A stretch of 44,087 nt of DNA from Gemmatimonadales bacterium (GTDB taxonomy: Bacteria > Gemmatimonadota > Gemmatimonadetes > Gemmatimonadales > GWC2-71-9): contig JBBDNM010000073.1 in assembly GCA_040877595.1 (NCBI GenBank), positions 1 to 44,087 of the forward strand, written 5' to 3'. This document shows, piece by piece, positions 2,690 to 44,087 of this stretch; the stretch's first letter is position 1, and every line of letters starts with the position of its first letter. The notes under the pieces are model-generated. The model did not search any database. It had not been told where the DNA came from and saw only the letters and a program-made list of their open reading frames with translations. The position numbers and the translations under genes are program-made.

Positions 2690-3207
2690 AGGTCCGCCGC
2701 CAGCTGGAGCGCTTGAAAGAAATGACCTTGGGCGACCTGAAGGATGTGAAGGGGGCGGCGTGGCATGAGGCACCGACAGGGAAGTGGTCGCTGGCGCAGA
2801 TCGTGGACCACTTGGCGCGTGCGATTGACACGATCGTCGGAGCCTTTGAGGCGCAGGCCGATGTGCCTCCGCGTCCGCGCCATGCCACGCCGCGTCAACA
2901 CCTGCTGCGCCACCTGATGCTTGGCGCCAACCAGTTGCCGAGCCCGCGGGCCATCAGTGAGCGCAACCGACCGAGTGACCGTCCCGATCCGGAGATGGTG
3001 ACGGCCGCGTTCCGCATGGCGGTCGAGCGACTCACGGAACTCACGGAGTCGTGGCCGGCCCCAAAGCAGGAAGGCCTCTTCGTGCCGCACCCGGTGCTGG
3101 GCGAGCTCAATCTGCCGGAGTGGGCGCGGTTCTTCTATGTGCGTGGACTGCAATACGCGCACCAGATCGGCGTCCGGCGCCGTTGGCTCGGGCGACGCGC
3201 TTCCTGA
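2686..3207 (+). CDS. DinB/DUF1569-like four-helix protein
   Basis: GKWSLAQIVDHL and HPVLGELNLPEW motifs; GTGA overlap with the RidA stop. Confidence 0.75.
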   Translation: MKVRRQLERLKEMTLGDLKDVKGAAWHEAPTGKWSLAQIVDHLARAIDTIVGAFEAQADVPPRPRHATPRQHLLRHLMLGANQLPSPRAISERNRPSDRPDPEMVTAAFRMAVERLTELTESWPAPKQEGLFVPHPVLGELNLPEWARFFYVRGLQYAHQIGVRRRWLGRRAS

Positions 3208-3770
3208 TCATTGCGTTCGTACTCGGCGTGGCGACCCCTGCGATAGCCCAGGGGACGCCAGGTTGGGTGCGCTTTGTGGCCGGCGCGGTCAGTTCGGTGC
3301 TCGTGCATGAGGCGGGGCACGTGACCGCCGCAGCCGTCCTTGGTGGTTCTCCCTCTGTTGGCTTCGATCGTGCCCGCCCGGTGGTCTATTCCGGCCTCGA
3401 CCCGGCGCTGGATCCCGACGCCCAGTTCGTCTTTTCGGCCTCCGGCATGAGTGTGCAGTTGCTGCTCAACGAGGCGCTTCTGGCGTGGCCGCATGAGACG
3501 GGCGAGCCGGCCGGCCCGCTTGAGCGCGGGGTGCTGGCAGGTGGTATCGGCACCGTGCTGTTCTACTTTACCATCGGTCGGAGCGCGTCGGTGAGCGATG
3601 TGCAGCAAATGGCGCAGTACTCCGGTCTGTCCAAGTGGACCTTGGGGGCGATGTTCGGTGGGGTGGCTGCTCTCGAAGCGGTGCGGATCTGGCGCAGCGA
3701 CCGCTATGGTCCGCATTTCTTTGTGCTGCCGGGGCCGGAACGGACGGTGCGCGTTGGGGTGGCGTACTAG
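3183..3770 (+). CDS. Hypothetical exported/membrane protein with HExxH motif
   Basis: Signal-like N-terminus, HEAGH in a hydrophobic helix, further hydrophobic segments. TTG start at 3183 inferred. Confidence 0.65.
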   Translation: MARATRFLIIAFVLGVATPAIAQGTPGWVRFVAGAVSSVLVHEAGHVTAAAVLGGSPSVGFDRARPVVYSGLDPALDPDAQFVFSASGMSVQLLLNEALLAWPHETGEPAGPLERGVLAGGIGTVLFYFTIGRSASVSDVQQMAQYSGLSKWTLGAMFGGVAALEAVRIWRSDRYGPHFFVLPGPERTVRVGVAY

Positions 3771-3842
3771 TCCCAGCTGCCCTGACCCCTGAGAGGAACC
3801 CCATGGTTGATCTCATCGCAGACGTCCGTTTGTGAGGCCCTG

Positions 3843-4073
3843 ATGCCTTTCAAGTATCGCTTGGTGTTTGCGTTGCTCGGTGTCCTGCTGCTTTGCAGCG
3901 GTTTGCTCGGGCTGTACGTCAGCCCTCGGCTCGCGGGTTGGCCGCAGTTGCGTGGTGTACTCGGCGGACTGATCGCCGCCGGCTTGGGTGCGCGAGTGAC
4001 GTGGTATGCCTACGACAATCGATTGCCGGAGTGGCTCACTGCCGTGCTGGGAGATCCGGAGGGGCGAGAATGA
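3843..4073 (+). CDS. Small two-TM membrane protein
   Basis: Two hydrophobic helices; GAGG upstream of ATG 3843. Confidence 0.6.
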   Translation: MPFKYRLVFALLGVLLLCSGLLGLYVSPRLAGWPQLRGVLGGLIAAGLGARVTWYAYDNRLPEWLTAVLGDPEGRE

Positions 4074-4194
4074 ATAGCCAGGCCGCATGTGACGGTGGCT
4101 CAAAGAGTTACGGGCCAGTGACTGGGGCGGTTACCCGGCGCACCTAGCGCCATCCCGGGTCTCGGGCCATTGTTGGGAAGGACGACCGAACCCC

Positions 4195-5604
4195 ATGATC
4201 TGCCCCCGCTGCCAACTCGGCGACCTCACCCCGGGCGAGACCTGCCCGCATTGCGCGTTCGTGATCCTGGCGGACGCGAGCGTCGACGATGCCATGCTCA
4301 AGGAACTCGAGCGCGTGGCCCGCAGTGAACTCGAAGGCGACTTCGATATCGAACGTGTGCTCGGTCGAGGCGGCATGTCCGTGGTGTTCCTCGCCCGTGA
4401 AAGCGAACTGGGCCGTCACGTTGCCCTGAAGGTGTTGCCACTCCAGCTGTCCTTCGGGCCCGATGCCGCGGAACGATTCAAGCGCGAAGCCCGTATCGCT
4501 GCCGGCCTCGATCACCCGCACATCGTGCCCGTGCACCGTGTGGGCTCTTCGCCCCGGCTCATGTGGTACTCCATGAAGTACGTCCGCGGCGCGAGCCTCG
4601 CTACCGTGCTCAATCGCGATGGCGCCCTGCCGCTCGACATCACGCGCCGCCTGATTGGCACGGTTGCGGGCGCCCTCCAAAGCGCGCACGACCGCGGCAT
4701 TGTCCACCGCGACGTGAAACCCGGCAACTTCATGATTGACGAGCGCGGCTGGGCCTGGGTGGCCGACTTCGGGGTGGCCAAGGCGTTCGGTGCCGTCCCG
4801 CTTACGCAGACCGGCGGCGCACTCGGTACGCCAGGCTACATGGCCCCAGAGCAGTTCTACGGTCGCGAACTGGACCACCGGGCCGATCAGTACGCGCTTG
4901 CGGTGGTCACCTACGAGTGCCTCGCCGGCGCCCCGCCCTTCATGGCCCACTCGCTGGGCGAGTACGTCCACAAACACACCCAGGTGCCGGCACCGGACAT
5001 CCGGCAGATCGCCCCGGACGTGCCCGACGACGTGGCGCAGGCTGTGGCCAAGGCGCTGAACAAGCAACCCGAGGGCCGCTTCAGCTCCATCGTGGAGTTT
5101 GCCACGGCAATCGGCGCGCCGAATGACTCCCAGGCCCTGCCGTCGATCGCGGCGTCCACAACGGTGGAGCACTCGGTCACGTCACCGATGGACCGTCCCA
5201 CGACCCCCATCACGCTGCAGCCCCGTCGCTTGCACGCTGTGCCGCGCCTCACTCGCCCTCGTGCGATCGCCGCCGCAGCGGCCATCGTCGTGCTGGGCCT
5301 GATCGGGGCCCTGACACTTCCCGATGGTGACACGCCAGACGAGGCGATCGTTCCAGAAAGCACCCTCGTACCGGCGAGCGGACCAGGCACGCTGATTCTT
5401 ACCACCATCCCCATCGGGACGTTAAGCATTGATGGCCGTCCGGCGGGTGAGGCGCACACGTTCCCTGACGGGGTCTCGTTGCCCGTCGGCCAGCACGAAT
5501 TGCGGGTCACCCATCGTGGGTTTGTGCCGTGGGTGGATACCGTCACGGTGCGCCCAGGAGACACGATTCGCCGCGTCGCGATTCCGCTCCGCGCCATCCA
5601 GTGA
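4195..5604 (+). CDS. Hanks-type Ser/Thr protein kinase with N-terminal Zn ribbon, TM helix and C-terminal PEGA-like domain
   Basis: CPRC/CPHC; LGRGGMSVV, VALK, HRDVKPGN, DFG and GTPGYMAPE; TM 'AIAAAAAIVVLGLIGAL'; PEGA-like beta domain. Confidence 0.93.
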   Translation: MICPRCQLGDLTPGETCPHCAFVILADASVDDAMLKELERVARSELEGDFDIERVLGRGGMSVVFLARESELGRHVALKVLPLQLSFGPDAAERFKREARIAAGLDHPHIVPVHRVGSSPRLMWYSMKYVRGASLATVLNRDGALPLDITRRLIGTVAGALQSAHDRGIVHRDVKPGNFMIDERGWAWVADFGVAKAFGAVPLTQTGGALGTPGYMAPEQFYGRELDHRADQYALAVVTYECLAGAPPFMAHSLGEYVHKHTQVPAPDIRQIAPDVPDDVAQAVAKALNKQPEGRFSSIVEFATAIGAPNDSQALPSIAASTTVEHSVTSPMDRPTTPITLQPRRLHAVPRLTRPRAIAAAAAIVVLGLIGALTLPDGDTPDEAIVPESTLVPASGPGTLILTTIPIGTLSIDGRPAGEAHTFPDGVSLPVGQHELRVTHRGFVPWVDTVTVRPGDTIRRVAIPLRAIQ

Positions 5605-6572
5605 TTCGCCCGCTGTTCCTACTGCTGCTCGCGGCTGGTCCGTTGGGCGCTCAGGCGCCACGCGCCCTGTTGGAAGAGGCGCGCCAGGCCTACCTGCAGC
5701 TCGAGCTTGAGCGCGCGCGCGCGCTGGCGCTTCGCGTGCTCGACGGGGAGCGCGCCGCCACAGCGCCCGACAGGGCCAACGCGCTCATGCTGCTCGGTAC
5801 GATTGCCGTGCTGCAACGTCGCGAGCCGGAGGCCCTGACACGCTTCAGCGCCCTGATCGCGCAGGCGCCGCGGTACCAACCCGACACGCTCATCACGCCG
5901 TCCGAGCCCCTGCAGGTGTTCCGGCGCGCGCGCGAGAATACCAAGGCGACCGATGTGGAAGCGTGGGGAGGTACCACCCTGCGCGCAACCGTGCGCGTAT
6001 CGTCGTTGCACCAGGTGACGGTGGTGGTGCTCGGTCGTGCGGGCGACACGGTGGAGGTCCTCTGGTCCGGGCCCATCCGTGATGAGGCGCCGGTCACCTG
6101 GAGTCCCATGCAGGCGGAGGGACGGCTTACCCTCGTGAGCGCGTCGATCGTGCAGGGGCGCGTGGTCCGTGAGGTTCGCCTCCCGCTTGAGGTGACTCGC
6201 CGCGCGCAGGATACGTTGCCTCTGCCAGTCGCCCCCCGGCTTCAGCCGGTCAGTGAACTCGCGAGCAGCGATTGGCGACTGTTGGCGGGAGGTCTCGGAG
6301 CCGGATTCGTCGTGTTGGCGCTCCCACCACTTGTGGGGTGGGAAACCAGTGCCGCCGCGCGCGGTGTTCTCGCACTTGGTCTCGGCGCCGGGGGCTTTGT
6401 GCTGTATCGCCGAGCGACGTCCGGCGAGGGGGCGGAGGTGGCGGCCGCCAATGCTCGGGCGCGCGCCCAGTGGGAGCGGGAGAGGCGCACCCGGATACAG
6501 GAGAACGCGCGGCGGCGTGCGCAGGTGGTGGTGGACGTGCGGGTCGGTGCGGGGGTGCGGGTCGAGCGGTAG
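5601..6572 (+). CDS. Exported TPR-like/membrane protein coupled to the kinase
   Basis: GTGA overlap with the kinase stop, signal peptide, TPR-like helices and two C-terminal hydrophobic segments. Confidence 0.7.
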   Translation: MIRPLFLLLLAAGPLGAQAPRALLEEARQAYLQLELERARALALRVLDGERAATAPDRANALMLLGTIAVLQRREPEALTRFSALIAQAPRYQPDTLITPSEPLQVFRRARENTKATDVEAWGGTTLRATVRVSSLHQVTVVVLGRAGDTVEVLWSGPIRDEAPVTWSPMQAEGRLTLVSASIVQGRVVREVRLPLEVTRRAQDTLPLPVAPRLQPVSELASSDWRLLAGGLGAGFVVLALPPLVGWETSAAARGVLALGLGAGGFVLYRRATSGEGAEVAAANARARAQWERERRTRIQENARRRAQVVVDVRVGAGVRVER

Positions 6573-7846: not shown

Positions 7847-9084
7847 ACGCGGCTTCGCAGGGCTTCAAGTGTGGGGGCGATCACCGGTGCCTCGGGCACC
7901 ACACCGATGAGCGCTTCGGTGGTCTTGAGACCGGTGCCCGTGAGTACCATGACCACATCGTCCTCGCGCGTAAGCGTGCCAGCCCGTGCCAAACGCTCGG
8001 CCGCCGCCATGACGACCCCGCCCGCCGTTTCCGTGAAGACCCCCTCGTGGCTCGCGAGCGTCGTGATGCCCTCCACCAGTTCCGCATCACTCACCGCCAC
8101 ACCGCCCCCGTGCGTGGTGCGGAGTGCGTGGACCGCCCACCGTCCATCCACCGGGTCGCCGATTGCCAGGGACTTGCAGATCGTGTTCGGTGTCACGGGC
8201 GTGATGGTCTCGGTATGCGCGCCAAACGCCGCCACAATGGGCGCACACCCCTCAGCTTGCGCCCCATAGATGCGCGGGCGCGCCGACACCCAGCCAAGCG
8301 AGGCGAGCTCGCCAAATCCTTGCGCGAGCTTCGTCACCAGCGCCCCGCCCGCCATCGGCGCTACCACGGCGCTCGGCGGCGTCCACGCGCTCTCGGCCGC
8401 GATCTCGTAGGCCAGGGTCTTCGAGCCCTCGGCATAGTATGCGCGCAGGTTCACGTTCACGACGCCCCAGCCGAGCGCCGAGGCCGCCTCTCGGCACAAG
8501 GCGTTGATTTCATCGTAGGTGCCGGATACGCGAACCAGATGTTGGCCGTACACGGCCGACGCAATGGTCTTGGTGGATTCAATGGATTCCGGAACGAGGA
8601 TCCATGCGTCGAGCCCAGCCGCCGCCGCCTGGGCCGCGACGCTGTGGGCCAGGTTGCCCGTGCTGGGGCACGCTACGGTGCGCAGGCCCAGTTCCAGCGC
8701 CCGGTTGATGGCGACCGCCACCGGGCGATCCTTGAACGACCACGACGGATACGCATAGCCATCCATCTTGAGCCGGAGGCGCCGAAGGCCAAGGTGCCGC
8801 GCCAGTTGCGGGGCGTCGACCAAAGGGCCACCCCGGGTGGCAAGAGAGACCCGTGGAGAGCCGGAGAGAGGGAGAAAGGGAGACCAGGTCCAGATGGTAT
8901 CGGGGACCAAGGCATCACGATCGAGGGTCCGCCATACCGCCGCGTCATACAGGGGGTCCAGCATGCCGTCACAATCGCAGGCTATGCGTGCGGTGGCCGG
9001 AAACTCGCGGCCGCACGCGCGGCACGCCAAGCGCTCGCGGAACGCGCCCTCTCCCTTTCTCCCTTGCTCCCTTTCTCTGCTCAT
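7843..9084 (-). CDS. thrC: Threonine synthase (PLP, fold type II) with N-terminal Zn ribbon
   Basis: SFKDR (PLP Lys), STGN, EGSKT, PMAGG and TGTGLK. ATG 9084 overlaps the upstream TGA; adjacent to thrB. Confidence 0.88.
   Translation of the reverse strand: MSREREQGRKGEGAFRERLACRACGREFPATARIACDCDGMLDPLYDAAVWRTLDRDALVPDTIWTWSPFLPLSGSPRVSLATRGGPLVDAPQLARHLGLRRLRLKMDGYAYPSWSFKDRPVAVAINRALELGLRTVACPSTGNLAHSVAAQAAAAGLDAWILVPESIESTKTIASAVYGQHLVRVSGTYDEINALCREAASALGWGVVNVNLRAYYAEGSKTLAYEIAAESAWTPPSAVVAPMAGGALVTKLAQGFGELASLGWVSARPRIYGAQAEGCAPIVAAFGAHTETITPVTPNTICKSLAIGDPVDGRWAVHALRTTHGGGVAVSDAELVEGITTLASHEGVFTETAGGVVMAAAERLARAGTLTREDDVVMVLTGTGLKTTEALIGVVPEAPVIAPTLEALRSRV
8863..8885. repeat. GGGAGAAA-type octamer remnant inside thrC; 15-bp perfect inverted partner of 9050-9064
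   Basis: AGGGAGAAAGGGAGA (8869-8883) is the reverse complement of TCTCCCTTTCTCCCT (9050-9064). Confidence 0.6.
9047..9080. repeat. Octamer tandem array (CTCCCTTT/CTCCCTTG)x3 encoding the thrC N-terminal extension
   Basis: ctcccttt ctcccttg ctcccttt at 9051-9074, translated as REQGRKGEG. Confidence 0.85.
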
Positions 9085-11408: not shown

Positions 11409-11483
11409 AAGGGAGAAAGGGAGAAAGGGAGAAAGGGAGCCTCCGCCGTCGCCCTTTCTCCGCTACTCCCTTTCTCCGCTACT
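11409..11483. repeat. Inverted octamer arrays (AAGGGAGA)x4 and (CCCTTTCT CCGCTACT)x2 forming an intergenic hairpin
   Basis: Read directly at 11409-11440 and 11452-11483; the second arm overlaps the permease stop codon. Confidence 0.9.
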
Positions 11484-12696
11484 CGTATCGCAACGCCTGA
11501 ATCGGATCCAGCCGCGCCGCCCGCTGTGCCGGCCACATGCCGAAGAAGATGCCGACAACCCCGCTGAAGGCGACGGCGATGCCGATCGCCATGGGCGGGA
11601 CCTGCGTGTTCCAGTTGGCGAGTTCTGACAAGGCGACCGCGCCGCCGATGCCGACCGCCACGCCTACGATGCCGCCGAGCAGGCAAAGCACCATGGCTTC
11701 GATGAGGAACTGGGTCAGGATGTTCGCCTTGGTGGCGCCCAAAGCCTTCCGCACGCCGATCTCGCGCGTGCGCTCGGTGACGGACACCAGCATGATGTTC
11801 ATGATGCCGATCCCGCCCACGAGCAGGGACACGGCGGCAATGCCGGCGAGCAGGAAGGTGAACGTCCGTGTGCTCTCCTCGCGTGTGGCGAGGAAGTCAC
11901 CGCGGTTGCGGATCTGGAAATCGTTGTCGTTACCCGGCCGGATACCGTGCTCCCGGCGCATGATGCGCTCAATGCTCAACATGCCGACGTTCATCGAGTC
12001 CGTTGACCCCACCTGCACGGTGATGGACCGCACACGGTCGTGGCCAAACACGCGAAACCGTCCGGTCTGGATCGGGATGAAGATCTGCTCGTCCGCGTTG
12101 CTGAAGCTGTTGGCGGAACCCTTTTCGATCAGGACCCCCACCACTTCGAACGGGATGCCACCGATCTGGATCGTCTGGCCAATCAGGCCGACGGGGTTGG
12201 CATCGAGCAGTTTCGGTACCGCGCCCGCGAGCACCGCCACCCGGCGACGGTTCTCGTCGTCGCCGCGCGTGAAATACCGCCCGGCGATCAATTCATACTT
12301 GTTCACCGGGAAGAAGTTGGGCGTGGTGGAGTTCACGCTGACATTGATGTTGCGATTGCCGTACTTGATCTGGCGGTTGCCGGCGAGCTCCGGCACCACT
12401 TCCGCCAGGAGCGGACCACCGTCGCGGCTCAAGGCGGTCGCATCATCTACGGTGAGCGCCACCCGTTGTTCACTGGCTACGCCGCGCTGAAACGACTGGC
12501 CCGGGTGGACCGAGAGCAGGTTGGTGCCCAGCGCGTCAATCTGCGCCTGAATAGCCTGCTGGGCCCCGTTGCCTAGGGCGACCATGGTGATCACAGCGGC
12601 GACGCCGATCACGATGCCCAGCATGGTCAGCAGGGACCGCAACTTGTTGGCGCGGACCGCGGACAGGGCCACGCCGATGGTTTCGCCGATCAGCAT
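11479..12696 (-). CDS. MacB/FtsX-family ABC transporter permease
   Basis: RSLLTMLGIVIGVAAV, GGIGIMNIMLVSVTERTREIG and PAQRAARLDPIQALRYE. Confidence 0.95.
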   Translation of the reverse strand: MLIGETIGVALSAVRANKLRSLLTMLGIVIGVAAVITMVALGNGAQQAIQAQIDALGTNLLSVHPGQSFQRGVASEQRVALTVDDATALSRDGGPLLAEVVPELAGNRQIKYGNRNINVSVNSTTPNFFPVNKYELIAGRYFTRGDDENRRRVAVLAGAVPKLLDANPVGLIGQTIQIGGIPFEVVGVLIEKGSANSFSNADEQIFIPIQTGRFRVFGHDRVRSITVQVGSTDSMNVGMLSIERIMRREHGIRPGNDNDFQIRNRGDFLATREESTRTFTFLLAGIAAVSLLVGGIGIMNIMLVSVTERTREIGVRKALGATKANILTQFLIEAMVLCLLGGIVGVAVGIGGAVALSELANWNTQVPPMAIGIAVAFSGVVGIFFGMWPAQRAARLDPIQALRYE

Positions 12697-19448: not shown

Positions 19449-21242
19449 TCAGGTCAAGCTGCCCGCGCATTCGCGCCACCGTTCAAACGTGAAGAGCGTC
19501 CACAGCGCCCGGCTGTGGTCGGCGGTGCGGGCGCGATGTTCCGCGAGCATGGAAGTGACCGCATCGGAGCGCACGAGTCCCAACGCGTCAAGGCGCTCCC
19601 GACGGAACAGGCGGTCGGCTTCCTCCCGCAAGGCACCATTCAGCAGGCCTCCCACGGGCACCGTCATGCCACGCTTCGTGCGCCGCAACACGTATGCAGG
19701 TACCCGCGTTCGCGCGAGCGCGCGCAGGAGCCGTTTTCCCCGCCACCCCACGTGAGTTGCCGCACCGGCCCGCCGCGCCAGCCGCACCACCCCGGGATGG
19801 AGGAACGGCACTCGACCTTCGAGACCGACCCGCATGGTGGCCCGGTCGAACTTGACCAGCAGGCGCTCGCGGAGCCACAGCGTACGGTCGAACTCCATGA
19901 TCTCGTCGAGGATGTCGGTGCACGGCGCACGGTGCACGGTGCACGGGCTGGTCAGGGCGTGGGGTGGCATTGCACCACTGAACCACGCAATGTGGCGCTC
20001 GATCGCCGGCTTGCGGGCTTCTTCCAGGAATCGTCGTACCAGGAAGGATGTGGTTAGCCGCCGATCGCCGGACCGAGGACGGAACCACCGGGCACCGTGC
20101 ACCGTGCACCATGCCACAAAGGGAATCTCGGCCAACCGATGCGCCAGATACGTAGGATAGCCGCCGAAGAGCTCGTCGGCACCCTCGCCGGAGAGCACGA
20201 CCGTGACATCCTGACGGGTGCGCTCGGCGAGAAGAATCGTGGGCAACAGGGCCGGGTCCGCGATGGGTTCGCCGAGGGTGCGGGCGATGTCGAGGGCGCG
20301 AAGCAGGTCGGCGGTGCCGGCTTCCACCTCGGTGAGTGGCAGGCCGAGGTCGCGCGCCACGCGACGGGCCATTGGGCGCTCATCGTATGAACTCTCGGGA
20401 AAGCCCACGCAGAACGCCGGCATGCCGGGCTGGTGCCTCGCTGCGGCCTGGGCGACCAGGGACGAATCGAGCCCGCCACTCAGGAACACGCCGATCGGGA
20501 CATCCGACTGCAACTCGGCGGCGACCGCGTCGTCAAAGGCCTGCGCCAGTTCGGACGGCGCGACGGGAGCGTATTCGACCGGGTCCTCGGCATCATACCG
20601 TACGATCTGCACGCCGGATGGCGTGAACACCACCGCGCATCCCGCCGGCACCTTGCGCACACCGGCGAAAAGGGTGCGGGGTTCGCGCACGACGCCGAGG
20701 GCCAACTGGTCGCGCGCGGCGTCGAGGTCGAGCGCGATGGCCAACTGCGGGTGATGCCGCAGGGGTTCGGGGGCCGAGGCAAACCAGACCTCGCTGCCAA
20801 CGTGCGTATAAAACAGGGGCTTTTCACCGTGGACGTCCCGGGCCAGCACGAGGGTGCGCGTGTCGGGTGCCCACCACGCCAGTCCGAACATCCCCTCGAC
20901 GGCGCGCAGGCCGACGGGGCCGTGCTGGTCGAGGATCGGTAGCAGCGTCTCGCCGTCCGTGCGCGACCTGAAGGGATGACCAGCGAATCGGCGGCGCAGG
21001 TCGGGCGCGTTGTAGATCTCGCCGTTGACGGCAAGGACATGGCGCTGGTGCGTGAACGGTTGATCCGCCTCAGGGCGGGGATCGACGATACGGAGCCGAT
21101 GGACGCCGATGATGGCCTCAGGCAACGTATGGACATGGTGGGCGTCCGGGCCGCGCGGCTGGACGCTGGTCGCAAGCCGATCGGCGCGTTCAGGCCACCG
21201 CAATGCCCCCGCGAGGGCGACCATGCCGTAGATGCCGCACAC
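19449..21242 (-). CDS. asnB: Asparagine synthetase (glutamine-hydrolysing)-like amidotransferase
   Basis: N-terminal MCGI, RGPD, NGEIYN, LSGGLDSS, SGEGADELFGGY and E.RVPFL. Confidence 0.88.
   Translation of the reverse strand: MCGIYGMVALAGALRWPERADRLATSVQPRGPDAHHVHTLPEAIIGVHRLRIVDPRPEADQPFTHQRHVLAVNGEIYNAPDLRRRFAGHPFRSRTDGETLLPILDQHGPVGLRAVEGMFGLAWWAPDTRTLVLARDVHGEKPLFYTHVGSEVWFASAPEPLRHHPQLAIALDLDAARDQLALGVVREPRTLFAGVRKVPAGCAVVFTPSGVQIVRYDAEDPVEYAPVAPSELAQAFDDAVAAELQSDVPIGVFLSGGLDSSLVAQAAARHQPGMPAFCVGFPESSYDERPMARRVARDLGLPLTEVEAGTADLLRALDIARTLGEPIADPALLPTILLAERTRQDVTVVLSGEGADELFGGYPTYLAHRLAEIPFVAWCTVHGARWFRPRSGDRRLTTSFLVRRFLEEARKPAIERHIAWFSGAMPPHALTSPCTVHRAPCTDILDEIMEFDRTLWLRERLLVKFDRATMRVGLEGRVPFLHPGVVRLARRAGAATHVGWRGKRLLRALARTRVPAYVLRRTKRGMTVPVGGLLNGALREEADRLFRRERLDALGLVRSDAVTSMLAEHRARTADHSRALWTLFTFERWRECAGSLT
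19916..19946. repeat. Heptamer array (GGTGCAC)x4 in frame inside asnB
   Basis: ggtgcac ggcgcac ggtgcac ggtgcac, translated as PCTVHRAPCT. Confidence 0.9.
20086..20111. repeat. Heptamer array (TGCACCG)x3, inverted relative to 19916-19946, inside asnB
   Basis: ggcaccg tgcaccg tgcacca, translated as WCTVHGARW. Confidence 0.88.
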
Positions 21243-26031: not shown

Positions 26032-26468
26032 CAGTGCAATCCGGAGGCCGATGGAGGTTGGTTAGGCGCGCGGCCGGGGGTGGCTTCGCTCACGGTGAGG
26101 GGCACGGTCGCAGCAAGCTCGCCGTCCACGGTCACCTCGAATCGATACCGGCCCGCCTGCGCGAGGGGCACGTCAAACGCGAGCACGGCCCCGGCCTCAA
26201 TCTCGAGGACGCCTGCCACGGGTTCCGCGAACGTGACCGTGCCGTTGCCGTGCAGGATCTCGCTGTCCGCGTTGTCCAGCAGCCGGATCAGGACCGGGTG
26301 CTCGCCGATCTCGGTCCGCTTGCCCTTCAACCGAAGCACCAGGTGCAGGCGAGGGTGCACGGTGGGGAAGCGGGCCACCCAGATATGCTGGAAGATGCCC
26401 AGCACCGAGAGCTTGCCGTGCTGGTCTACGATTGCATAGTCACACACCACCGCAAAGTCGACAATCAT
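26031..26468 (-). CDS. Conserved hypothetical beta-sandwich protein (DUF6941-like)
   Basis: CDYA...GKLSVLGIF and GRYRFEVTVDG; translationally coupled on both sides. Confidence 0.75.
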   Translation of the reverse strand: MIVDFAVVCDYAIVDQHGKLSVLGIFQHIWVARFPTVHPRLHLVLRLKGKRTEIGEHPVLIRLLDNADSEILHGNGTVTFAEPVAGVLEIEAGAVLAFDVPLAQAGRYRFEVTVDGELAATVPLTVSEATPGRAPNQPPSASGLH

Positions 26469-28363
26469 GCCGTGAGGGCCTCTCGCAGGTCATCGGGGGT
26501 TGCCACCGGCGCGCGGCACGCGGCGCCGATACAAACGTACGCGCGCGGATGCGCGGCCGTCAGCATGGCCCGAACCGGCTCGGGGAGACGGGCCGGGTCG
26601 GCGCCGGGTCGGAGCAGGGTGAGCACTCGGCGGGGTGCCCACGTGGTGCGGGCAGCATACGCCAGGGCACGCCCGGCCTCGTCATCCTCCGCCACGACCA
26701 CGACATGCGTTGCGGGCTGCAACAAGCGGTCCGCCGCCAGCAGGAGGCTGGCCCCGTGGACCCCCAGATCGCCCAACGTTTCGCCCAGGGCCTCAAGCAA
26801 CCGTTGTGCGGCGGCCCGGTATTCGACCACCCCCGTATGCTCGGCGAGGCGTACGAGGACATCGGCAGCGACGCCGTTCGGCGACGGCGCGGGCGCGTCA
26901 TGAATCGGGATGACCGGGTCGGACAACATGCCATCGCCGTCAGTGCCCGCGCGGTCTCGCAGGGTGCCGGCCGGCGTGAGGTAGTGCGCCAAGACGTGAT
27001 CCATCAAGTCCGCACCGCGATCCAACCACGCGCGATCACCGGTGTGCTCCCAGGCATCCAAGGCGAGTTGCGCGGCATAGACCTGGTCTTCGAGCAGACC
27101 ACGAACGGGTGAACCGAGCGCGTGCCGGAGGCCGCCGGAGCCGTCGGCGCCTTCGGTGAAGAGCCGGTGCGCGGTGTGTAGTGCGTGTTCGTGGGTGCGT
27201 GGTGCGTGGTGCGTGGTGCGGAGGAGGGCCGAGGCCATTAATGCGGACCAGCCAACGTAGATCGTGCGATCCACATAGGGTGCTTTGCGCTCCGCCCGGG
27301 TGGTCCGGAGGGCGGCGCGGCCCGTCGCCACGAGTGCGGGGTCCGCGGTCGGATCCACGACATGCAGGACAGAGCGTTCATCCGTGATGCCGTAATACCG
27401 AATGACCGCATCCGCGGCGTCCGGATCGCATACATTACGTACCTCTTCGCGTGTCCACGTGAAGTAGTCGCCATCGTCATCGAGCCCGACGTCCGCATCC
27501 TGGGAACCGGCGTAGCCGCCCGCGGGATCAGCCATCAGCTCCATCGCCCAACGTGCGATGTCGGCCGTCACGGTCTGATACGCCGAGCCGGCATCGGCAT
27601 AGATGCCCAGCAGCTCGGCGTTGTCATACAGCATCTTCTCGAAGTGCGGGACGTGCCACCGGGCATCCACGCTGTACCGATGGAAGCCGCCGCCCACATG
27701 ATCGTAGATGCCGCCGTTGGCCATGGCGGTGAGCGTGCGATCCACCAGGTCGCGGTGACGGGTGAGCAGGAAACGAAGCGCGCCGGGATGCGGGAACTTG
27801 GGACTGGTGCCGAAGCCGCCGTAGTGGAAGTCGAAGACGCGAACCATGCTCTCGGCGGCCTGCGCAAGAAGGTCCGGTGTCACCGCGCCCGCCGTAACGG
27901 TGTCCTCACCCACGTCGGCCAGGCGGGCGCGGATCAGGTCGGCCTGTTGGGTCAGCTTGTCGCGTTCTTCACGCCACAGGCGCCGCAGCTCGACCAGCAT
28001 GGTGCGGAACCCCGGCCGGCCGTGCGTGCCATCCGGCGGGAAGTAGGTGCCGCCAAAGAACACGGATCCGTCGTGCGTGAGGAACGCGGTGAGCGGCCAG
28101 CCGCCCTGCTGGGTCATCGCCTGCACCGCGCGCTGATACCGGGCATCCACGTCAGGCCGTTCGTCGCGGTCCACCTTGATGCACACCCACTCGGCATTCA
28201 GCAGCTCGGCCAACGAAGGGTCCTGGTACGACTCGCGATCCATCACATGGCACCAGTGGCACCACACCGCCCCGACGTCGAGGAGAATGGGTCTGTCCTC
28301 CGAGCGGGCCTTCGCGAACGCTTCGGGTCCCCAATCCATCCAGCGTACCGGCCCGTGCTTCAT
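26465..28363 (-). CDS. Thioredoxin-domain protein (YyaL/SPATA20, DUF255)
   Basis: WCHWCHVMDRES, KVDRDERPDVD, GGWPLT, GGFHRYSVD and PHFEKMLYDNA. ATG 28363 overlaps the nth stop. Confidence 0.92.
   Translation of the reverse strand: MKHGPVRWMDWGPEAFAKARSEDRPILLDVGAVWCHWCHVMDRESYQDPSLAELLNAEWVCIKVDRDERPDVDARYQRAVQAMTQQGGWPLTAFLTHDGSVFFGGTYFPPDGTHGRPGFRTMLVELRRLWREERDKLTQQADLIRARLADVGEDTVTAGAVTPDLLAQAAESMVRVFDFHYGGFGTSPKFPHPGALRFLLTRHRDLVDRTLTAMANGGIYDHVGGGFHRYSVDARWHVPHFEKMLYDNAELLGIYADAGSAYQTVTADIARWAMELMADPAGGYAGSQDADVGLDDDGDYFTWTREEVRNVCDPDAADAVIRYYGITDERSVLHVVDPTADPALVATGRAALRTTRAERKAPYVDRTIYVGWSALMASALLRTTHHAPRTHEHALHTAHRLFTEGADGSGGLRHALGSPVRGLLEDQVYAAQLALDAWEHTGDRAWLDRGADLMDHVLAHYLTPAGTLRDRAGTDGDGMLSDPVIPIHDAPAPSPNGVAADVLVRLAEHTGVVEYRAAAQRLLEALGETLGDLGVHGASLLLAADRLLQPATHVVVVAEDDEAGRALAYAARTTWAPRRVLTLLRPGADPARLPEPVRAMLTAAHPRAYVCIGAACRAPVATPDDLREALTA
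27181..27220. repeat. Heptamer array (GTGCGTG)n in frame inside the YyaL-like gene
   Basis: gtgcgtg ttcgtgg gtgcgtg gtgcgtg gtgcgtg gtgcg, translated as RTTHHAPRTHEHA. Confidence 0.88.
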
Positions 28364-29025
28364 CGCTTCTTCCTCCTTGCTCCCTTGCTCCCTTGCTCCC
28401 TTGTCCCCTTGATCCCTATGCGCGGACACCACCGATTCACTGGGCAGATCTCGCACCTGGGCTTGAGCGCCGTGCACACCGCCCGCCCGTGATGAATCAT
28501 CAGGTGCGGAAACAGGGTCCACTGCCCCTTGGGCACGAGCTGCATCAGATCACGTTCGATCTTGACCGGGTCCTTGTGTTTGGTGAATCCCAGGCGCTGG
28601 CTGATGCGGCCCACGTGCGTGTCCACCACCACGCCTTCTTCGATCCCAAAGGCGTTGCCGAGCACGACGTTCGCGGTCTTCCGGCCCGCGCCGGGCACGG
28701 TGACCAGCTCGCTCATGCTGGAGGGCACCTCGCCGCCGAAGCGCTCGACGAGCGCCCTGCCCATGCCAATCAGGCTCCTGGTCTTGTTGTTGAAGAATCC
28801 CGTGGACTTGATGTACTCGGCGAGCTCGTCGGGACTGGCGTCGGCGAAATCCTGCGCGGTGCGATAGCGGGCGAACAGGGCGGGGGTCACCTTGTTCACG
28901 CGTTCATCGGTGCATTGGGCCGAGAGGATGGTGGCGACCAGCAGCTGGAGCGGACTCGCATAGTCCAGCGAACACTTCGCGTCGGGATATGCCGTCTGGA
29001 GCGCGGCCAGGACCTGCTCGATCAT
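28360..29025 (-). CDS. nth: Endonuclease III
   Basis: LVATILSAQCTD, HhH motif PGAGRKTANVV, VDTHV and the [4Fe-4S] motif C-x6-C-x2-C-x5-C. Confidence 0.96.
   Translation of the reverse strand: MIEQVLAALQTAYPDAKCSLDYASPLQLLVATILSAQCTDERVNKVTPALFARYRTAQDFADASPDELAEYIKSTGFFNNKTRSLIGMGRALVERFGGEVPSSMSELVTVPGAGRKTANVVLGNAFGIEEGVVVDTHVGRISQRLGFTKHKDPVKIERDLMQLVPKGQWTLFPHLMIHHGRAVCTALKPRCEICPVNRWCPRIGIKGTREQGSKGARRKKR
28373..28411. repeat. Octamer array (CTCCCTTG)x~5 encoding the nth C-terminal tail
   Basis: ctccttg ctcccttg ctcccttg ctcccttg tccccttg, translated as KGTREQGSKGARR. Confidence 0.9.
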
Positions 29026-37060: not shown

Positions 37061-38206
37061 CTACGCCAGCACGGCCTTCGCGATGGTCTGGAGTTGCATG
37101 TTGTTGGTGCCTTCGTAGATCTGGCCCACCTTGGCATCGCGATAGAACTTCTCGACCGGGTACTCCTTGGTGTACCCGTTGCCGCCCAGCAGCTCGATCG
37201 CCATGCTGGTGATGCGCTCGGCGGCCCGTGAGGCGTACAGTTTGGACATGCCGCCTTCCGTGGTGTGCGGCAGCCCCGCATCCTTGAGTCGGGCGGCGTT
37301 CCACGTGAGCAGCCGCGCGGCTTCCAGGTCCGTGGCCATTTCGGCCAACTGGAACTGCACGCCCTGGAACTCGCCGATGGCTTTCCCGAACTGTTTCCGT
37401 TCCTTCACGTAGGCGCGCGCGCAATCGTAGGCGCCTCGCGCGATGCCGAGCATCTGGGCGCCGATGCCCACGCGCCCGCCGTTCAGCGTTTCAATGGCCA
37501 CCTTGTAGCCTTTGCCGACCTCGCCGACCACATTCTCGGCGGGCACTTCGACGTCCTGCAGGATCAACTCGGTGGTGCTGGACGCCCGGATACCGAGTTT
37601 GTCTTCTTTCTTGCCGACCGCGAACCCCTTCTGTTGGCGTTCGACCAGGAACGCCGTGATGCCACGATAGCCCTGACTCGGATCGACGTTGGCGAACACG
37701 ATGTAGATCTCGGCCTCGGCGCCATTCGTGATCCAGAGTTTCTGGCCGGTCAAGACGTAGTGGTCGCCCTTCTTGACGGCGCGCGTTTCGAGCGCAAAGG
37801 CGTCGGAACCGGAATTGGCTTCAGAGAGGGCGTAGGCGCCGAGCGCGCCGGCGGCGAGGCGGGGCAGGAAGCGGGTCTTGACGTCGTCATTGGCCCAGGC
37901 CATGAGCGCGTCGCACATCAGCGTGTTGTGCACGTCCACCATGACCGAGGCGCTGCCGTCCACGGCAGCCAATTCTTCGATGGCGAGCGCGCTCATGAAG
38001 AACGTGCCGCCGGCGCCGCCGTACTGTTCCGGGACGTTGATGCCCATGAGCCCGAGCTCGGCAAACTTGGGGATCAGCGACAGGTCGAACTGCGCCGTTG
38101 CGTCCATGTCGCGGACCTTCGGGCCCACCTCCGCGATGGCGAAGTCGCGGACGGCGTCGCGGAACATGGATTCGTCTTCGGAGAGGACGGTCAGGGGGGT
38201 GGTCAT
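37061..38206 (-). CDS. Acyl-CoA dehydrogenase (short/branched-chain type)
   Basis: ALSEANSGSD, KLWITN, KLGIRASST, RKQFG, GGNGY and IYEGT. AAAGGGA SD before ATG 38206. Confidence 0.95.
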   Translation of the reverse strand: MTTPLTVLSEDESMFRDAVRDFAIAEVGPKVRDMDATAQFDLSLIPKFAELGLMGINVPEQYGGAGGTFFMSALAIEELAAVDGSASVMVDVHNTLMCDALMAWANDDVKTRFLPRLAAGALGAYALSEANSGSDAFALETRAVKKGDHYVLTGQKLWITNGAEAEIYIVFANVDPSQGYRGITAFLVERQQKGFAVGKKEDKLGIRASSTTELILQDVEVPAENVVGEVGKGYKVAIETLNGGRVGIGAQMLGIARGAYDCARAYVKERKQFGKAIGEFQGVQFQLAEMATDLEAARLLTWNAARLKDAGLPHTTEGGMSKLYASRAAERITSMAIELLGGNGYTKEYPVEKFYRDAKVGQIYEGTNNMQLQTIAKAVLA

Positions 38207-38238
38207 GTCATGATCCCTTTGGCTGGCCAAATCTAGTC

Positions 38239-38325
38239 CCGGGAGCGGGGAGCAGGGAGCGGGGAGCGGGAAAAGCCACTACGACGGGGAGCTGGGAGCG
38301 GGGAACGGGGAGCGGGAAAGCCACA
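38239..38325. repeat. Left heptamer array: two blocks of (GGGAGCG)x4, each followed by GGAAA(A)GCCAC
   Basis: Blocks at 38241-38280 and 38287-38325 (46-bp higher-order duplication). Confidence 0.93.
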
Positions 38326-38376
38326 AACGGCGTCATTCTGGTACAGCAACTCGCACAGGGCGCGGTATGGTAGGTT

Positions 38377-38730
38377 ATGGACAAGTACCGGTCGTTGGTC
38401 GCCTGGCAGTACGCCCATCAGGCGCTCTTGCTTGGGCTGCCGCTCTGTGAAGAAGCTCGAACACATGTCCGCTCGTGGCTGATCGACCAGCTTGGCCGAG
38501 CACTGGTGTCTATCGAAGCGAATATCGTGGAGGGCTACGCTCTGGGTTCGACAGCCCAGTTCAAGCGGCACCTGGTCATTGCGCGAGGATCTGGTTCGGA
38601 GGCTGAGACGCTCTTGCGAGGCGCTGTTGAGTTGACGTGGGTAGACGCCGGTCGTGCCGCTGCGGTACTGCAGGCGCTTGATCGAACATTGGGCGCCATC
38701 CATGGTCTCATTCGCAAGCTATCCAACTAG
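38377..38730 (+). CDS. Four-helix-bundle protein (TIGR02436 / 23S rRNA IVS protein / bAvd-like superfamily)
   Basis: YRSLVAWQ, DQLGRALVSIEANIVEG, F.RHL.IARGS..E and GLIRKL; 117 aa. Confidence 0.9.
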   Translation: MDKYRSLVAWQYAHQALLLGLPLCEEARTHVRSWLIDQLGRALVSIEANIVEGYALGSTAQFKRHLVIARGSGSEAETLLRGAVELTWVDAGRAAAVLQALDRTLGAIHGLIRKLSN

Positions 38731-38732
38731 GT

Positions 38733-38802
38733 CTTCCCGCTTCCTGCTCCCTGCTCCCCGTCCGGGGCTTCCCGCTCCCCGCTCCCCGCTTTCTGCTCCC
38801 CG
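38733..38802. repeat. Right heptamer array (CTCCCCG)-type, ten contiguous 7-nt phases, inverted relative to the left array
   Basis: cttcccg cttcctg ctccctg ctccccg tccgggg cttcccg ctccccg ctccccg ctttctg ctccccg; ends flush against the pilX-like stop codon. Confidence 0.93.
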
Positions 38803-39873
38803 TCAATACGTCGCCCAGTTGTCCACGAAGGCATTATCGATTGGGGCGAAGCCCGTGAGGCCCGACATGGCGGCGTCAATGTTGCACTGGTTGTAGCGGA
38901 TTTGCACCGTGTGCGATGTCGTGAGGTTGCTCCGGGCCCCGCCGAGGTTCCCCACTTGGCTGTAGAGGCCGCTTACGAGCATCCCATAAATGTATGAACC
39001 GATGAAGCCACCCTCAAAATCGATATCCTCACCCACCAGGACGACCCCGCTCCAAATGATCCAGCTTCGGATTCGTAGCCGCCCCGTCACAATCAGCAGT
39101 CCAGATCCATAGATACCGGACAGGATCCCGGTGCCAGTCGTGTAGTCACCACTGACAATCGTAATGCTCGACTGATCGCTGTATTGAGGATAGATCGTCG
39201 GGGTCGGGCTGTCCTCCTTGATCCCGCCGTCGAGAATGGACTGCCAGTCGATTTTCGAGGAATCGGCGAGCCCGGCCTCGCTGAGGTTCTCGTTCGGGCT
39301 GCCGGACGTCGCAATAGTCTTTCCAGACGGTCCGGTGACGGAGGCCGCGCGGAGACCGGCGGTCGTCGGGGAGCCACCACACTGGTTGAAGCCATCCACG
39401 GTGACGGGCAGGGGGCCCGGGGGGCCTCCGGGCTTCTGGATACCATCGGCAGCCACCCAGGCAGCGCGCACACGTATCGTCCCCGTTTGCCACTCCGCAA
39501 ACTGTGCTACCGTCCGCTGAGCGCGCGGCACACTCCCCGTTCCCGCGTCAATCACGTAGCCCGTTGACCGCACGATCCACGTCTGGCTCGCCATGGTGTC
39601 AGCCGGATTCTGAACAATGGTGGCCGTCACGATGGCGTAGCCGCCGGTCACGTACATCGTGTCAACGATCCCGTCGGCAGGGCGGGTCGCCTGGGCCTCG
39701 AGGAATAGATGCAGCCCGCTACGCGCCACGGACAGGGCTTCGCTGCTCACCTCCTGCCCTTCGGCCACTTGACGATCCGCCCGCACACGAACGAAGCCCG
39801 AGGTGAGCATCACGGTGATGAGTGCCACCAACAGCACCACCATGGGGATCGCGAAGCCGCGGTCGTCGCGCAT
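38803..39873 (-). CDS. PilX/GspK-like minor pilin with large C-terminal domain
   Basis: Class III signal RG|FAIPM lacking Glu5, 'ALSVARSG' and 'IVRSTG'; last gene of the minor-pilin cluster. Confidence 0.8.
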   Translation of the reverse strand: MRDDRGFAIPMVVLLVALITVMLTSGFVRVRADRQVAEGQEVSSEALSVARSGLHLFLEAQATRPADGIVDTMYVTGGYAIVTATIVQNPADTMASQTWIVRSTGYVIDAGTGSVPRAQRTVAQFAEWQTGTIRVRAAWVAADGIQKPGGPPGPLPVTVDGFNQCGGSPTTAGLRAASVTGPSGKTIATSGSPNENLSEAGLADSSKIDWQSILDGGIKEDSPTPTIYPQYSDQSSITIVSGDYTTGTGILSGIYGSGLLIVTGRLRIRSWIIWSGVVLVGEDIDFEGGFIGSYIYGMLVSGLYSQVGNLGGARSNLTTSHTVQIRYNQCNIDAAMSGLTGFAPIDNAFVDNWATY

Positions 39874-42604: not shown

Positions 42605-44087
42605 ATGACTGACGTCGCCGGCATCTTCGACACCCTCGACTACGGTCCCGCGCCGGAAAGCCCGGAGCTCGCCAAGGCGTGGCTCACACAGCACAGGGCC
42701 AAGTTCGACCTGTTCATCGGCGGTGGATGGAAACAACCCGCCAAGGGCACGTGGTTCGCCACGCACAACCCCGCGACAGGAAAAGAGATTGCGCAGATCG
42801 CGCAGGGTGAGGCGGCGGATGTGGATGTCGCGGTGGCCGCAGCGCGTCGGGCGCAGCCGGCGTGGGAAGCGCTTGGTGGACACGGGCGCGCGCGATACCT
42901 GTATGCGATTGCGCGACATCTCCAGAAACACAGCCGATTGTTCTCGGTCTTGGAGACCATGGACAATGGCAAGCCGATCCGTGAGGCGCGCGACATTGAT
43001 ATCCCACTCGTCGCGCGCCACTTCTATCATCATGCCGGTTGGGCTCAGCTCCGTGACGAGGTACTCCCCGGCTACGAGCCGGTAGGCGTGATCGGCCAGA
43101 TCATCCCGTGGAACTTCCCGCTGCTCATGCTGTCATGGAAAATCGCGCCGGCGCTGGCGTGCGGAAACACGGTGGTCCTCAAGCCCGCAGAGTTCACGTC
43201 GCTCACATCATTGCTGTTTGCCGAAGTGTGTCAGGCGGTGGGCCTGCCCCCGGGTGTCGTAAACATGGTGACGGGCGACGGCCAGACCGGGGCGGCGCTG
43301 GTGGCCCATCCTGATGTCAACAAGATCGCGTTTACGGGTTCGACGGACGTGGGCCGGATCATTCGGACCGCCACGGCGGGCACCGGCAAGAAGCTCTCGC
43401 TTGAGTTGGGCGGGAAGTCGCCGTTTGTCGTGTTTGACGATGCCGACCTGGACAGCGTGGTCGAGGGCGTGGTGGACGCCATCTGGTTCAACCAGGGTCA
43501 GGTGTGCTGTGCGGGCTCGCGGATCCTGGTGCAGGAAGGCGTGGCCGAGCAGCTCACCGCCAAGCTCAAGGCGCGGATGGAGACCCTCCGCATGGGGGAT
43601 CCGCTCGACAAGGCAGTGGATATCGGGGCCATTGTGGCACCGGTGCAGCTCGAGAAGATCACGCAGCTCGTGGAGCAAGGCCGCCGGGAGGGCGCGCAGG
43701 TCTGGCAGCCATCGTGGAGTGTGCCCAAGGACGGGTGGTTCTACCCGCCCACGTTGTGCACCGATGTTTCGCCGGCCGCCACCATCGCGCAGGTGGAGAT
43801 CTTCGGACCGGTGGTGGTGCTCATGACGTTTCGCACACCCGCTGAAGGTGTGGCGATGGCCAACAACACGCGCTACGGCCTTGCCGCGAGCGTGTGGACG
43901 GAGAACATCAACCTGGCGCTGGACGTCGCGCCCAAGATCAAGGCGGGTACGGTCTGGGTGAACTGTACTAACGTGTTTGATGCGGCGAGCGGATTTGGTG
44001 GCTATCGCGAGAGCGGCTTTGGGCGGGAAGGTGGGCTTGAGGGGATCTATGAGTACGTGAAGAAGACGGGAGACGGGAGACGGGAGA
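42605..44087 (+). CDS. Aldehyde dehydrogenase (deoC-associated), 3' end outside the window
   Basis: Absent from the ORF track because it has no stop. Read by hand from ATG 42605: [47 protein letters not shown] and GFGREGG. Confidence 0.92.
44064..44087. repeat. Heptamer array (AGACGGG)x3+, cut by the window end
   Basis: agacggg agacggg agacggg aga, in frame after ...GIYEYVKK. Confidence 0.88.

Follow-up and report, generated by a model that had tools for sequence, protein, structure and literature searches.

Why would a small four-helix-bundle gene, of a family known from the intervening sequences (IVSs) of rRNA, stand between two protein-coding genes and inside two long, mirror-image arrays of a heptamer? 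This arrangement occurs in contig JBBDNM010000073.1 of a Gemmatimonadales bacterium (GenBank assembly GCA_040877595.1), the whole 44,087-nt stretch of which we refer to as the window. The genome, G000, amounts to 2.66 Mb in 97 contigs (92.7% complete, 66.8% G+C), and the window is its contig C73; coordinates given without a contig label are window positions. The element spans 38241-38804 and consists of a PF05635/TIGR02436 gene between two-block inverted GGGAGCG/CTCCCCG arrays. Our analysis confirmed that the repeat-flanked gene is real and far beyond chance. It very probably belongs to a class of IVS-type cassettes, and its repeat unit recurs in the genome as a hairpin that holds no gene. The features of the locus are as follows.

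38241 to 38324, no strand assigned: left purine-rich arm with two GGGAGCG-type heptamer blocks, 38241-38272 and 38285-38318 (repeat and inverted-match analysis)
38325 to 38376, plus strand: spacer 5' of the four-helix-bundle gene, with a TGGTAC box at 38339-38344 and a TATGGT box at 38366-38371 (sequence reading)
38377 to 38730, plus strand: gene for the 117-aa four-helix-bundle protein, PF05635/TIGR02436 (open reading frame [ORF], profile matches, and structure model)
38729 to 38804, no strand assigned: right pyrimidine-rich arm with two CTCCCCG-type heptamer blocks, 38733-38762 and 38767-38804 (repeat and inverted-match analysis)
38803 to 39873, minus strand: 356-aa gene beside pilin-like genes, labeled "pilX-like" (ORF; C-terminus conserved as in relatives)
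37061 to 38206, minus strand: acyl-CoA dehydrogenase gene (Pfam; directly downstream of the pilX-like gene in relatives)

Tandem Repeats Finder placed the left array at 38241-38316 (period 7, 10.3 copies, GGGAGCG) and the right array at 38736-38802 (period 7, 9.6 copies, CCCGCTC). The arms match in inverted orientation between 38283-38318 and 38769-38804 (36 nt, 89%), between 38241-38272 and 38769-38800 (32 nt, 88%), and between 38246-38272 and 38734-38760 (27 nt, 93%). The two left blocks, spaced 46 nt, are 91% identical. Each is closed by a GGGAAA(A)GCCAC cap (GGAAAAGCCAC and GGGAAAGCCAC), and each right-arm block is opened by a GG(T/G)CTTCCCGC cap, read from the sequence as GGTCTTCCCGC and GGGGCTTCCCGC. 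The 70 nt of the right arm from 38733 to 38802 comprise 39 C, 18 T, 13 G, and no A. When folded, both strands place the arrays in a nested terminal stem, at -293.1 kcal/mol (z -6.43) for one strand and -257 kcal/mol (z -5.88) for the other, and none of 100 shuffled sequences did as well in either case. An initial annotation of this DNA had described inverted heptamer arrays around the gene, two blocks per side with matching caps, a long stem on either strand, and a self-contained unit with no transposase, and all of this was borne out; the ORFs of the cassette include no transposase. We also found no direct repeat that could represent a target-site duplication at the outer borders (CCC/GGGAGCG ... 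CTCCCCG/TCA). A search of Rfam with the element returned a single match at chance level (E 0.55).

The 117-aa protein encoded on the plus strand matched PF05635 (E 6.6e-16, 58.9 bits against a cut-off of 33.8) and TIGR02436 (E 2.4e-16, 59.9 bits against a cut-off of 24), in agreement with its earlier assignment to the IVS/S23p family; PADLOC returned no match for it. AlphaFold modeled the protein from a 51-sequence alignment with a pLDDT of 96.7 and predicted helices at residues 8-28, 34-56, 59-85, and 91-116. Among solved structures compared using Foldseek, the model was most similar to PDB entries 2gsc (TM 0.86) and 2rld (TM 0.85), which contain five chains each. Avd, a protein of diversity-generating retroelements (DGRs), followed with 4dwl_D (TM 0.76, E 0.088), and next came Avd chains from DGR ribonucleoprotein entries. 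The predicted fold therefore resembles that of Avd, as had been proposed.

Residues at the N-I-x-E-G and G-S-x-x-E positions are conserved: W10, Q38, N49, E52, G53, S72, and E75 are invariant in 25 sequences, and N49, I50, E52, and E75 in 51. The closest relatives of the protein among named records come from metagenome-assembled genomes (MAGs) of Gemmatimonadales. We compared coding sequences in 35 pairs of PF05635 loci that share flanking DNA and are therefore syntenic. The proportion of nonsynonymous differences was below that of synonymous differences (pN < pS) in all 35 pairs, and the 19 pairs with finite dS had a median dN/dS of 0.138. The protein has therefore been maintained over long periods.

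The gene may also be transcribed on its own. The TATGGT box lies 5 nt ahead of the ATG, and the 38325-38376 spacer contains no Shine-Dalgarno-like run. When 32 loci of the subfamily were aligned at the ATG, a TTTGG/TTTGA box recurred approximately 35-42 nt upstream, again with no Shine-Dalgarno-like run, and a TAnnnT-like box recurred 6-14 nt upstream. These boxes suggest a promoter belonging to the gene and a leaderless mRNA that would exclude the left arm, while a consensus scan of 38100-38950 found no sigma-70-like promoter. The same scan bears on a TAGATT box that the initial annotation had assigned to the dehydrogenase: the hexamer is present, and the promoter role found no support. No intrinsic terminator-like site was detected in 38100-38950, and the region has no U-tract.

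To what site does the cassette owe its position? The right array runs to base 38802, and the minus-strand 356-aa gene has its stop codon in the next three bases, 38803-38805; on the other side, the left array starts 34 nt from the dehydrogenase ATG (38206). Homologs of the 356-aa gene were found in 16 of the 41 genomes searched (G000 included), the nearest being 37-39% identical; the genomes compared included none of the same genus. In eight relatives' loci, the dehydrogenase directly follows the pilX-like gene on the same strand, and the match in a ninth locus (L026) is partial. PF05635 gave no tblastn match in any of these neighbor-pair loci. Six of the relatives' loci have spacers of 56, 70, 70, 73, 91, and 156 nt, and the other two have longer ones (372 and 531 nt); in the window, the spacer is 596 nt, of which approximately 562 nt are cassette. 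The C-terminus of the 356-aa protein (..W.TY*) and the N-terminus of the dehydrogenase (..PLTVLSE.E) resemble those of the relatives. These sequence comparisons show that the cassette is an insertion that left both neighbors undamaged. The comparison with empty sites suggested by the initial annotation thus gave eight relatives in which both neighbors are adjacent and lack a PF05635 gene between them, and its statement that the right array ends at an intact pilX-like stop was correct. Of its two minus-strand neighbors, the acyl-CoA dehydrogenase stands; the 356-aa protein matched no Pfam or NCBIfam family, and its "pilX-like" label derives solely from neighboring N_methyl/GspH pilin-like genes.

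We also looked for the locus in the contigs of four metagenome runs from one study. The cassette was intact in X1, the run that may be its source, and in X2; in X3 and X4, contigs ended at the arrays. In X2-X4, an identical 30- to 36-nt GGGAGCG array (window 38237-38272) occurred in unrelated contexts at up to approximately 265x depth; more abundant members of the community therefore use the same unit.

The cassette is not unique. Inverted tandem arrays flank all eight PF05635 hits in G000, and no two hits have the same unit (7, 8, 15, or 16 nt long). Seven of the hits exceed the cut-off; the one in C60 is weak and truncated, that in C26 is frameshifted, and that in C94 contains a run of N. 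PF05635 was present in 34 of 41 relatives' genomes, a count that is the sole use made here of the unpublished G014. We assembled 77 loci: the 8 in G000, the best hits of relatives (27), and homologs of the window protein (42). For each locus, we took the best ungapped match score between its own upstream and downstream flanks and compared it with 300 random cross-locus pairs. The own-flank median was 17; the cross-locus median was 8, with a 95th percentile of 11. Fifty-six of the 77 loci scored above 11, and 37 were above the 99th percentile of the cross-locus pairs. An earlier measure that counted shared inverted 7-mers (threshold 5) did not discriminate, with 61 of 77 own pairs and 1,950 of 5,852 cross pairs passing. 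The flanks proposed for paralogs were thus found at all eight hits in G000 and at most homologs. In a few loci, such as L047 and L056, long non-tandem inverted repeats take the place of arrays.

The arrangement extends beyond Gemmatimonadales. In a Bacteroidales MAG (G041), six of six PF05635 loci have inverted arrays that are AT-rich, and the design therefore tracks the gene across phyla and base compositions. At syntenic sites, the unit differs between species (GTGCGCN, GGTGAGT, and GTGCGTR within one group) and the two arms of each locus still match, which indicates concerted evolution of the arms. Units of the GGGAG[A/C]N type predominate among homologs with 50-56% identity to the window protein, and more distant homologs have other units. 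Across non-syntenic pairs, similarity of protein and similarity of unit were correlated with r = 0.176, a value reached in 0 of 500 permutations using a noisy 7-mer measure. The arms also share a polarity: the purine-rich arm lies 5' of the loop in 47 of 52 cassettes, and this holds when read from either strand. Near the C41 cassette, approximately 400 nt away, C41:25966-26502 (plus strand) matches the four-helix-bundle profile weakly, over the full length (E 0.008, profile positions 2-99), and may be a divergent tandem paralog.

The initial annotation had not extended to array hairpins that hold no gene but share units with cassettes, to other cargo genes, or to arrays within ORFs. A scan of G000 for inverted array pairs no more than 1.5 kb apart returned 66, of which 39 have loops of at most 40 nt; by eye they group into approximately 16 unit families. 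The window's own unit forms such a gene-less hairpin at C55:7246-7306, with a 4-nt gap between the arms. Each of the eight G000 cassettes shares at least two 11-mers with a gene-less G000 hairpin, as do 5 of the 27 relatives' best-hit cassettes and 23 of the 42 homologs of the window protein. All 39 short-loop hairpins have the purine-rich arm first. Unit sets are genome-specific: the GGGCAGAC pattern, from one cassette in G042, has 249 hits in that genome, 4 in G017, and none in G000, G026, or G043, and the GGGGCAC pattern, a second G042 unit, has 351 hits in G042, 190 in G026, and none in the other three. We judged specificity across genomes since a backward-read pattern is a meaningless control for tandem units.

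The window contains further arrays of these kinds. At 11409-11484, between two minus-strand ORFs, a gene-less short-loop hairpin is made of (AAGGGAGA)x3.9 followed, 1 nt apart, by CCCTTTCTCC-type repeats, and a related array pair at 8844-8883 and 9050-9077 encloses 166 nt. Single arrays occur at 27166-27220 (GGTGCGT x7.9, inside the minus-strand ORF 26468-28549), at 28375-28417 (CCTTGCTC x5.4, close to a gene boundary), and at 44064-44087 (AGACGGG x3.4, at the window end); their unit families are known elsewhere in G000.

Do the hairpins depend on the gene? We sampled ten relatives (1.69 Mb in total), a small sample of relatives that are not independent. In five that lack PF05635, the counts were 0 in 504 kb (G008), 1 in 149 kb (G005), 0 in 103 kb (G023), 0 in 108 kb (G006), and 1 in 124 kb (G028). 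The sum is 2 hits in 988 kb, both dubious GC-rich stretches with periods of 9-23 nt that are unlike the other arrays. Among PF05635-positive relatives, G015, G019, and G020 had three hairpins each, in 125, 81, and 200 kb, and the five positive samples together had 9 in 699 kb; G000 has 39 in 2,661 kb. Genomes without PF05635 have fewer hairpins; the trend is clear and the sample small.

These counts bear on the possibility that the array hairpins are an independent repeat class, serving as 3'-end stem-loops, terminators, or insulators in the manner of repetitive extragenic palindromic (REP) sequences, and that small orphan genes such as PF05635 and GxxExxY simply land or survive in their loops, the protein having nothing to do with the repeats. 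Hairpins do outnumber genes, by 39 to 8 in G000 and by hundreds of pattern hits to 8 genes in G042, and the largest hairpin families have no resident four-helix-bundle gene. Hairpins often lie next to stop codons, with 18 no more than 20 nt from a 3' end and 4 no more than 40 nt from a 5' end, as judged from crude ORF calls based on third-position G+C content (938 adjacent pairs genome-wide) in which stop-codon distances are usable and orientation classes unreliable. A hairpin can also hold different cargo. At C67:2019-2555 (L118), a minus-strand GxxExxY gene (TIGR04256; PF13366, PD-(D/E)XK-like) lies between inverted CACGGAGGA-type arrays and is a second kind of cargo in an array hairpin. Against such a passenger origin, hairpins were nearly absent from the 988 kb sampled from five PF05635-negative relatives, the eight cassettes in G000 have eight different units, close homologs in other genomes carry related units, and the window locus has neither a U-tract nor a terminator-like site. 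We regard this explanation as unlikely.

Two other loci resemble cassettes in layout. In the 12-kb contig C77, dense AGGGAGCA/CCCTTGCT arrays at 1030-6520 separate small modules as in a cassette array; by eye only, these modules look like pairs of an antitoxin and a MazF/PemK-like toxin. At C84:3650-4280, a small DUF559-like ORF (Vsr-type endonuclease-like, by eye) lies between inverted non-tandem CCCCCTCTCCGC..GCGGAGAGGGGG repeats.

Arrays are also found within coding sequences. In the window, inverted CGGTGCA/CACCGTG arrays at 19916-19946 and 20086-20114, 139 nt apart, lie in frame in the minus-strand ORF 19452-21242, which encodes a 597-aa Asn-synthase-like protein; the array-coded peptides fall in variable stretches and add no net insertion relative to five homologs. 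The alaS gene (C75:2181-4820, partly covered by L003) remains open for 880 aa despite in-frame array stretches at residues 188-200, 448-456, 518-527, and 757-767, which are four variable loops, and its units are common to intergenic hairpins. The replacement of coding sequence by arrays at constant length, together with the strict polarity (all 39 hairpins and 47 of 52 cassettes), would be explained if an Avd-like protein and a reverse transcriptase wrote the arrays in the manner of telomerase or a DGR, with a pyrimidine-rich RNA as template. The fold resemblance to Avd fits this idea; against it, G000 has no match to an RVT_1 reverse transcriptase (at 92.7% completeness) and no pair of template and variable repeats, and there is no known mechanism. 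We find it barely credible.

Could a transposase encoded elsewhere act on the arrays as terminal inverted repeats, as for miniature inverted-repeat transposable elements? The inverted termini, the location in a spacer by insertion, and the abundance of short copies that lack the gene would all be expected of such a nonautonomous transposon, and G000 does have two Y1-transposase (RAYT/IS200-like) genes, at C37:11103-11450 and C5:23050-23391. The flanks of both, however, hold ordinary REP-type hairpins (for example, CCACGGCTAAAGCCGCGG) and no tandem arrays, and they constitute a second repeat system that is separate from the tandem-array hairpins. Moreover, a single transposase would not fit the approximately 16 or more units grouped by eye in one genome, the window locus shows no visible target-site duplication, unit number varies between arms, and variant units are not mirrored. 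This origin is very improbable.

The initial annotation had called the element an IVS-like mobile or RNA-processed cassette. The IVS-like insertion is upheld by the results above; the RNA processing is not. As a classical IVS placed in mRNA, the cassette would fold in a read-through transcript, a double-stranded RNA endonuclease would cut the stem, and the cassette would leave the host RNA, the arrays serving RNA processing. The architecture and gene family are those of the IVSs of Coxiella, Leptospira, and Salmonella, which are excised by RNase III according to the available text of PMC4990558, and strong stems are predicted on both strands. One cassette, L041 (G038:C92, 1758-2075, minus strand; GGCACGG-type arrays), comes immediately after the 3' portion of a 23S rRNA gene and is oriented as the rRNA is. 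The match there begins at position 2595 of the large-subunit (LSU) rRNA model (83 bits), and an Era-like GTPase gene stands where the remainder of the rRNA would be expected, so that L041 represents a genuine rRNA IVS or, alternatively, a join made through an array during assembly.

RNase III itself was not found. The PF14622 profile had no match in G000, and PF00636 and TIGR02191 had none in G000 or in 12 relatives, several of which are 98-100% complete. Controls matched in 8-9 of 14 genomes, and the searches missed Thermus among the controls, for which reason the absence of RNase III is not proven; if real, it would mean that this order lacks the canonical double-stranded RNA endonuclease. 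Stem mismatches give no sign of RNA pairing either: of 257, 61 are compatible with G:U in the gene-sense strand and 52 in the antisense strand, and 144 are of the transversion type (P = 0.45). With neither an RNase III match nor G:U enrichment, cutting of RNA is unsupported, and DNA-level pairing and homogenization are favored. Because the conserved upstream boxes stand inward of the left arm, a transcript that started at the gene's own promoter would lack that arm. Excision of the RNase III type in this lineage is quite unlikely, and we judge the classical mRNA IVS as a whole to be improbable.

Taken together, these results lead us to favor, at somewhat better than even confidence, an IVS-type selfish cassette of roughly 565 bp in a protein-gene spacer, following a logic like that of REPIN/RAYT systems without a transposase and extending to the class as a whole. 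The cassette would consist of the PF05635 gene, a conserved upstream box that is possibly its own promoter, and two mirror-image GGGAGCG heptamer arms, and it would have been inserted between the pilX-like stop and the acyl-CoA dehydrogenase start with harm to neither. Pairing of the arms in single-stranded DNA, in read-through RNA, or in both could keep the arms alike and insulate the insert. By analogy with 2GSC and Avd, the protein may form a pentameric ring that binds the cognate repeat arms or hairpins. Gene-bearing and gene-less copies would exchange and spread through recombination between arrays of the same unit and not through a transposase. The support for recognition of the repeat by the four-helix-bundle protein is correlative only, and we put the functional dependence of the hairpins on the PF05635 protein at a little short of an even chance.

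Several results weigh against the selfish-cassette reading. Twenty-one of the 77 loci have no convincing second arm; some of these abut a contig end or a run of N, and in one syntenic group only the left array is present. The protein-unit correlation is weak, comes from a noisy measure, and is confounded by common descent. No hairpin was found in 93 kb of G007 or in 200 kb of G031, which have 13 and 8 PF05635 hits, respectively, and the hairpin families without a resident PF05635 gene in G000 (ACGGTGC, GGGAGAC, and GTGCGTG; assembly 92.7% complete) are the largest. Six-frame profile searches of G000 for four-helix-bundle remnants in hairpins with 67- to 196-nt loops found only the known loci, C41:25966-26502, and the weak C60. 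The excision and inversion that the initial annotation had suggested looking for were not seen: the contigs of the four metagenome runs contain no empty-site, inverted, or excised form. A simple cassette model does not explain the array pairs that replace sequence inside ORFs. The failure to find RNase III also counts against this reading, and with no G:U bias among the mismatches nothing indicates pairing at the RNA level.

A wider proposal builds on the same observations. PF05635 proteins and purine-first array hairpins could together be an unrecognized, transposase-free, self-maintaining repeat system across phyla and a counterpart of REPIN/RAYT, in which each pentamer recognizes its own 7- to 16-nt unit and sustains both genome-specific gene-less hairpins and array patches that overwrite variable loops in essential genes, with the rRNA IVS as a special case. 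We consider this doubtful. The array-wrapped genes, the shared gene-less hairpins, and the scarcity of hairpins where the gene is missing nevertheless frame a testable question, namely, whether the protein binds its own repeat and maintains or copies hairpins. For annotation, the arrays are a class of repeat that breaks metagenome assemblies and can sit in frame in housekeeping genes. PF05635/TIGR02436 is a large family with solved structures, and we know of no function for it outside DGRs. Why rRNA IVSs carry this ORF has been a standing question since the early 1990s.

How does the element compare with known systems? IVSs in rRNA, which in other bacteria also exist in shorter forms with no ORF, have the same protein family in the loop and terminal inverted repeats that form a long stem around the ORF. 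Of four features listed for IVSs, the window element has the stem and the ORF family and lacks the rRNA location; no LSU rRNA is assembled in G000. The closest published remark that we found concerns the Coxiella IVS, which, in the available text of Warrier et al. (PMC4990558), combines a terminal stem of 28 bp with an S23p ORF that is preceded by heptameric repeats in variable number; RNase III cuts this IVS. Those heptameric direct repeats and the total size of approximately 430-560 nt are further points of likeness. Unlike that IVS, the window element lies between two protein genes, antisense to both, and not in an rRNA helix, and its arms are two-block tandem arrays in place of a single 28-bp stem. 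PF05635 ORFs are under purifying selection here, whereas the Coxiella ORF is described there as decaying, and the searches of this lineage did not find RNase III, which performs the excision in the known cases.

REPIN/RAYT systems consist of REP-associated tyrosine transposases and dispersed REP doublets. The likeness lies in a gene flanked by an inverted short repeat, dispersal of the same repeat as gene-less hairpins, genome-specific repeat sets, and long-term vertical inheritance. The gene here, however, encodes a four-helix bundle of 117 aa that lacks an HUH or Y1 domain, units of 7-16 nt in tandem arrays take the place of single palindromes, and G000 separately holds two genuine RAYT-like genes with their own REP hairpins. 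Avd (PDB 4dwl and 8ube) has the same four-helix-bundle fold (TM 0.76-0.82), and relatives within the family crystallize with five chains; Avd binds RNA stem-loops, according to the available text of 10.1101/2023.10.23.563531. Sequence identity to Avd is only about 10%, though, with a Foldseek E value of only 0.088, and no reverse transcriptase stands beside the gene or was found in G000 by the RVT_1 search, nor is there a template or variable repeat.

A full-text literature search, with subscription journals and supplements outside its scope, returned no paper in which PF05635, S23p, or four-helix-bundle genes are connected with inverted tandem arrays at their flanks or with gene-less hairpins dispersed elsewhere. 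The nearest parallel for the repeats themselves is in Xanthomonas, where 70-75 convergent pairs of the GGGAATC heptamer, closely spaced and mostly intergenic, were interpreted as G-quadruplex formers (Rehm et al., PMC4692102, in its available text). That text does not link the heptamer pairs to the PF05635 family, and the words "four helix" and "intervening" do not occur in it. Both cases have G-rich heptamer arrays arranged as inverted pairs, and Xanthomonas also encodes a PF05635 protein (XCC0516, PDB 2gsc). The locus possibly points to a new class of repeat system; if so, the class would account for the abundant heptamer arrays that have been reported without explanation in Xanthomonas and other bacteria.

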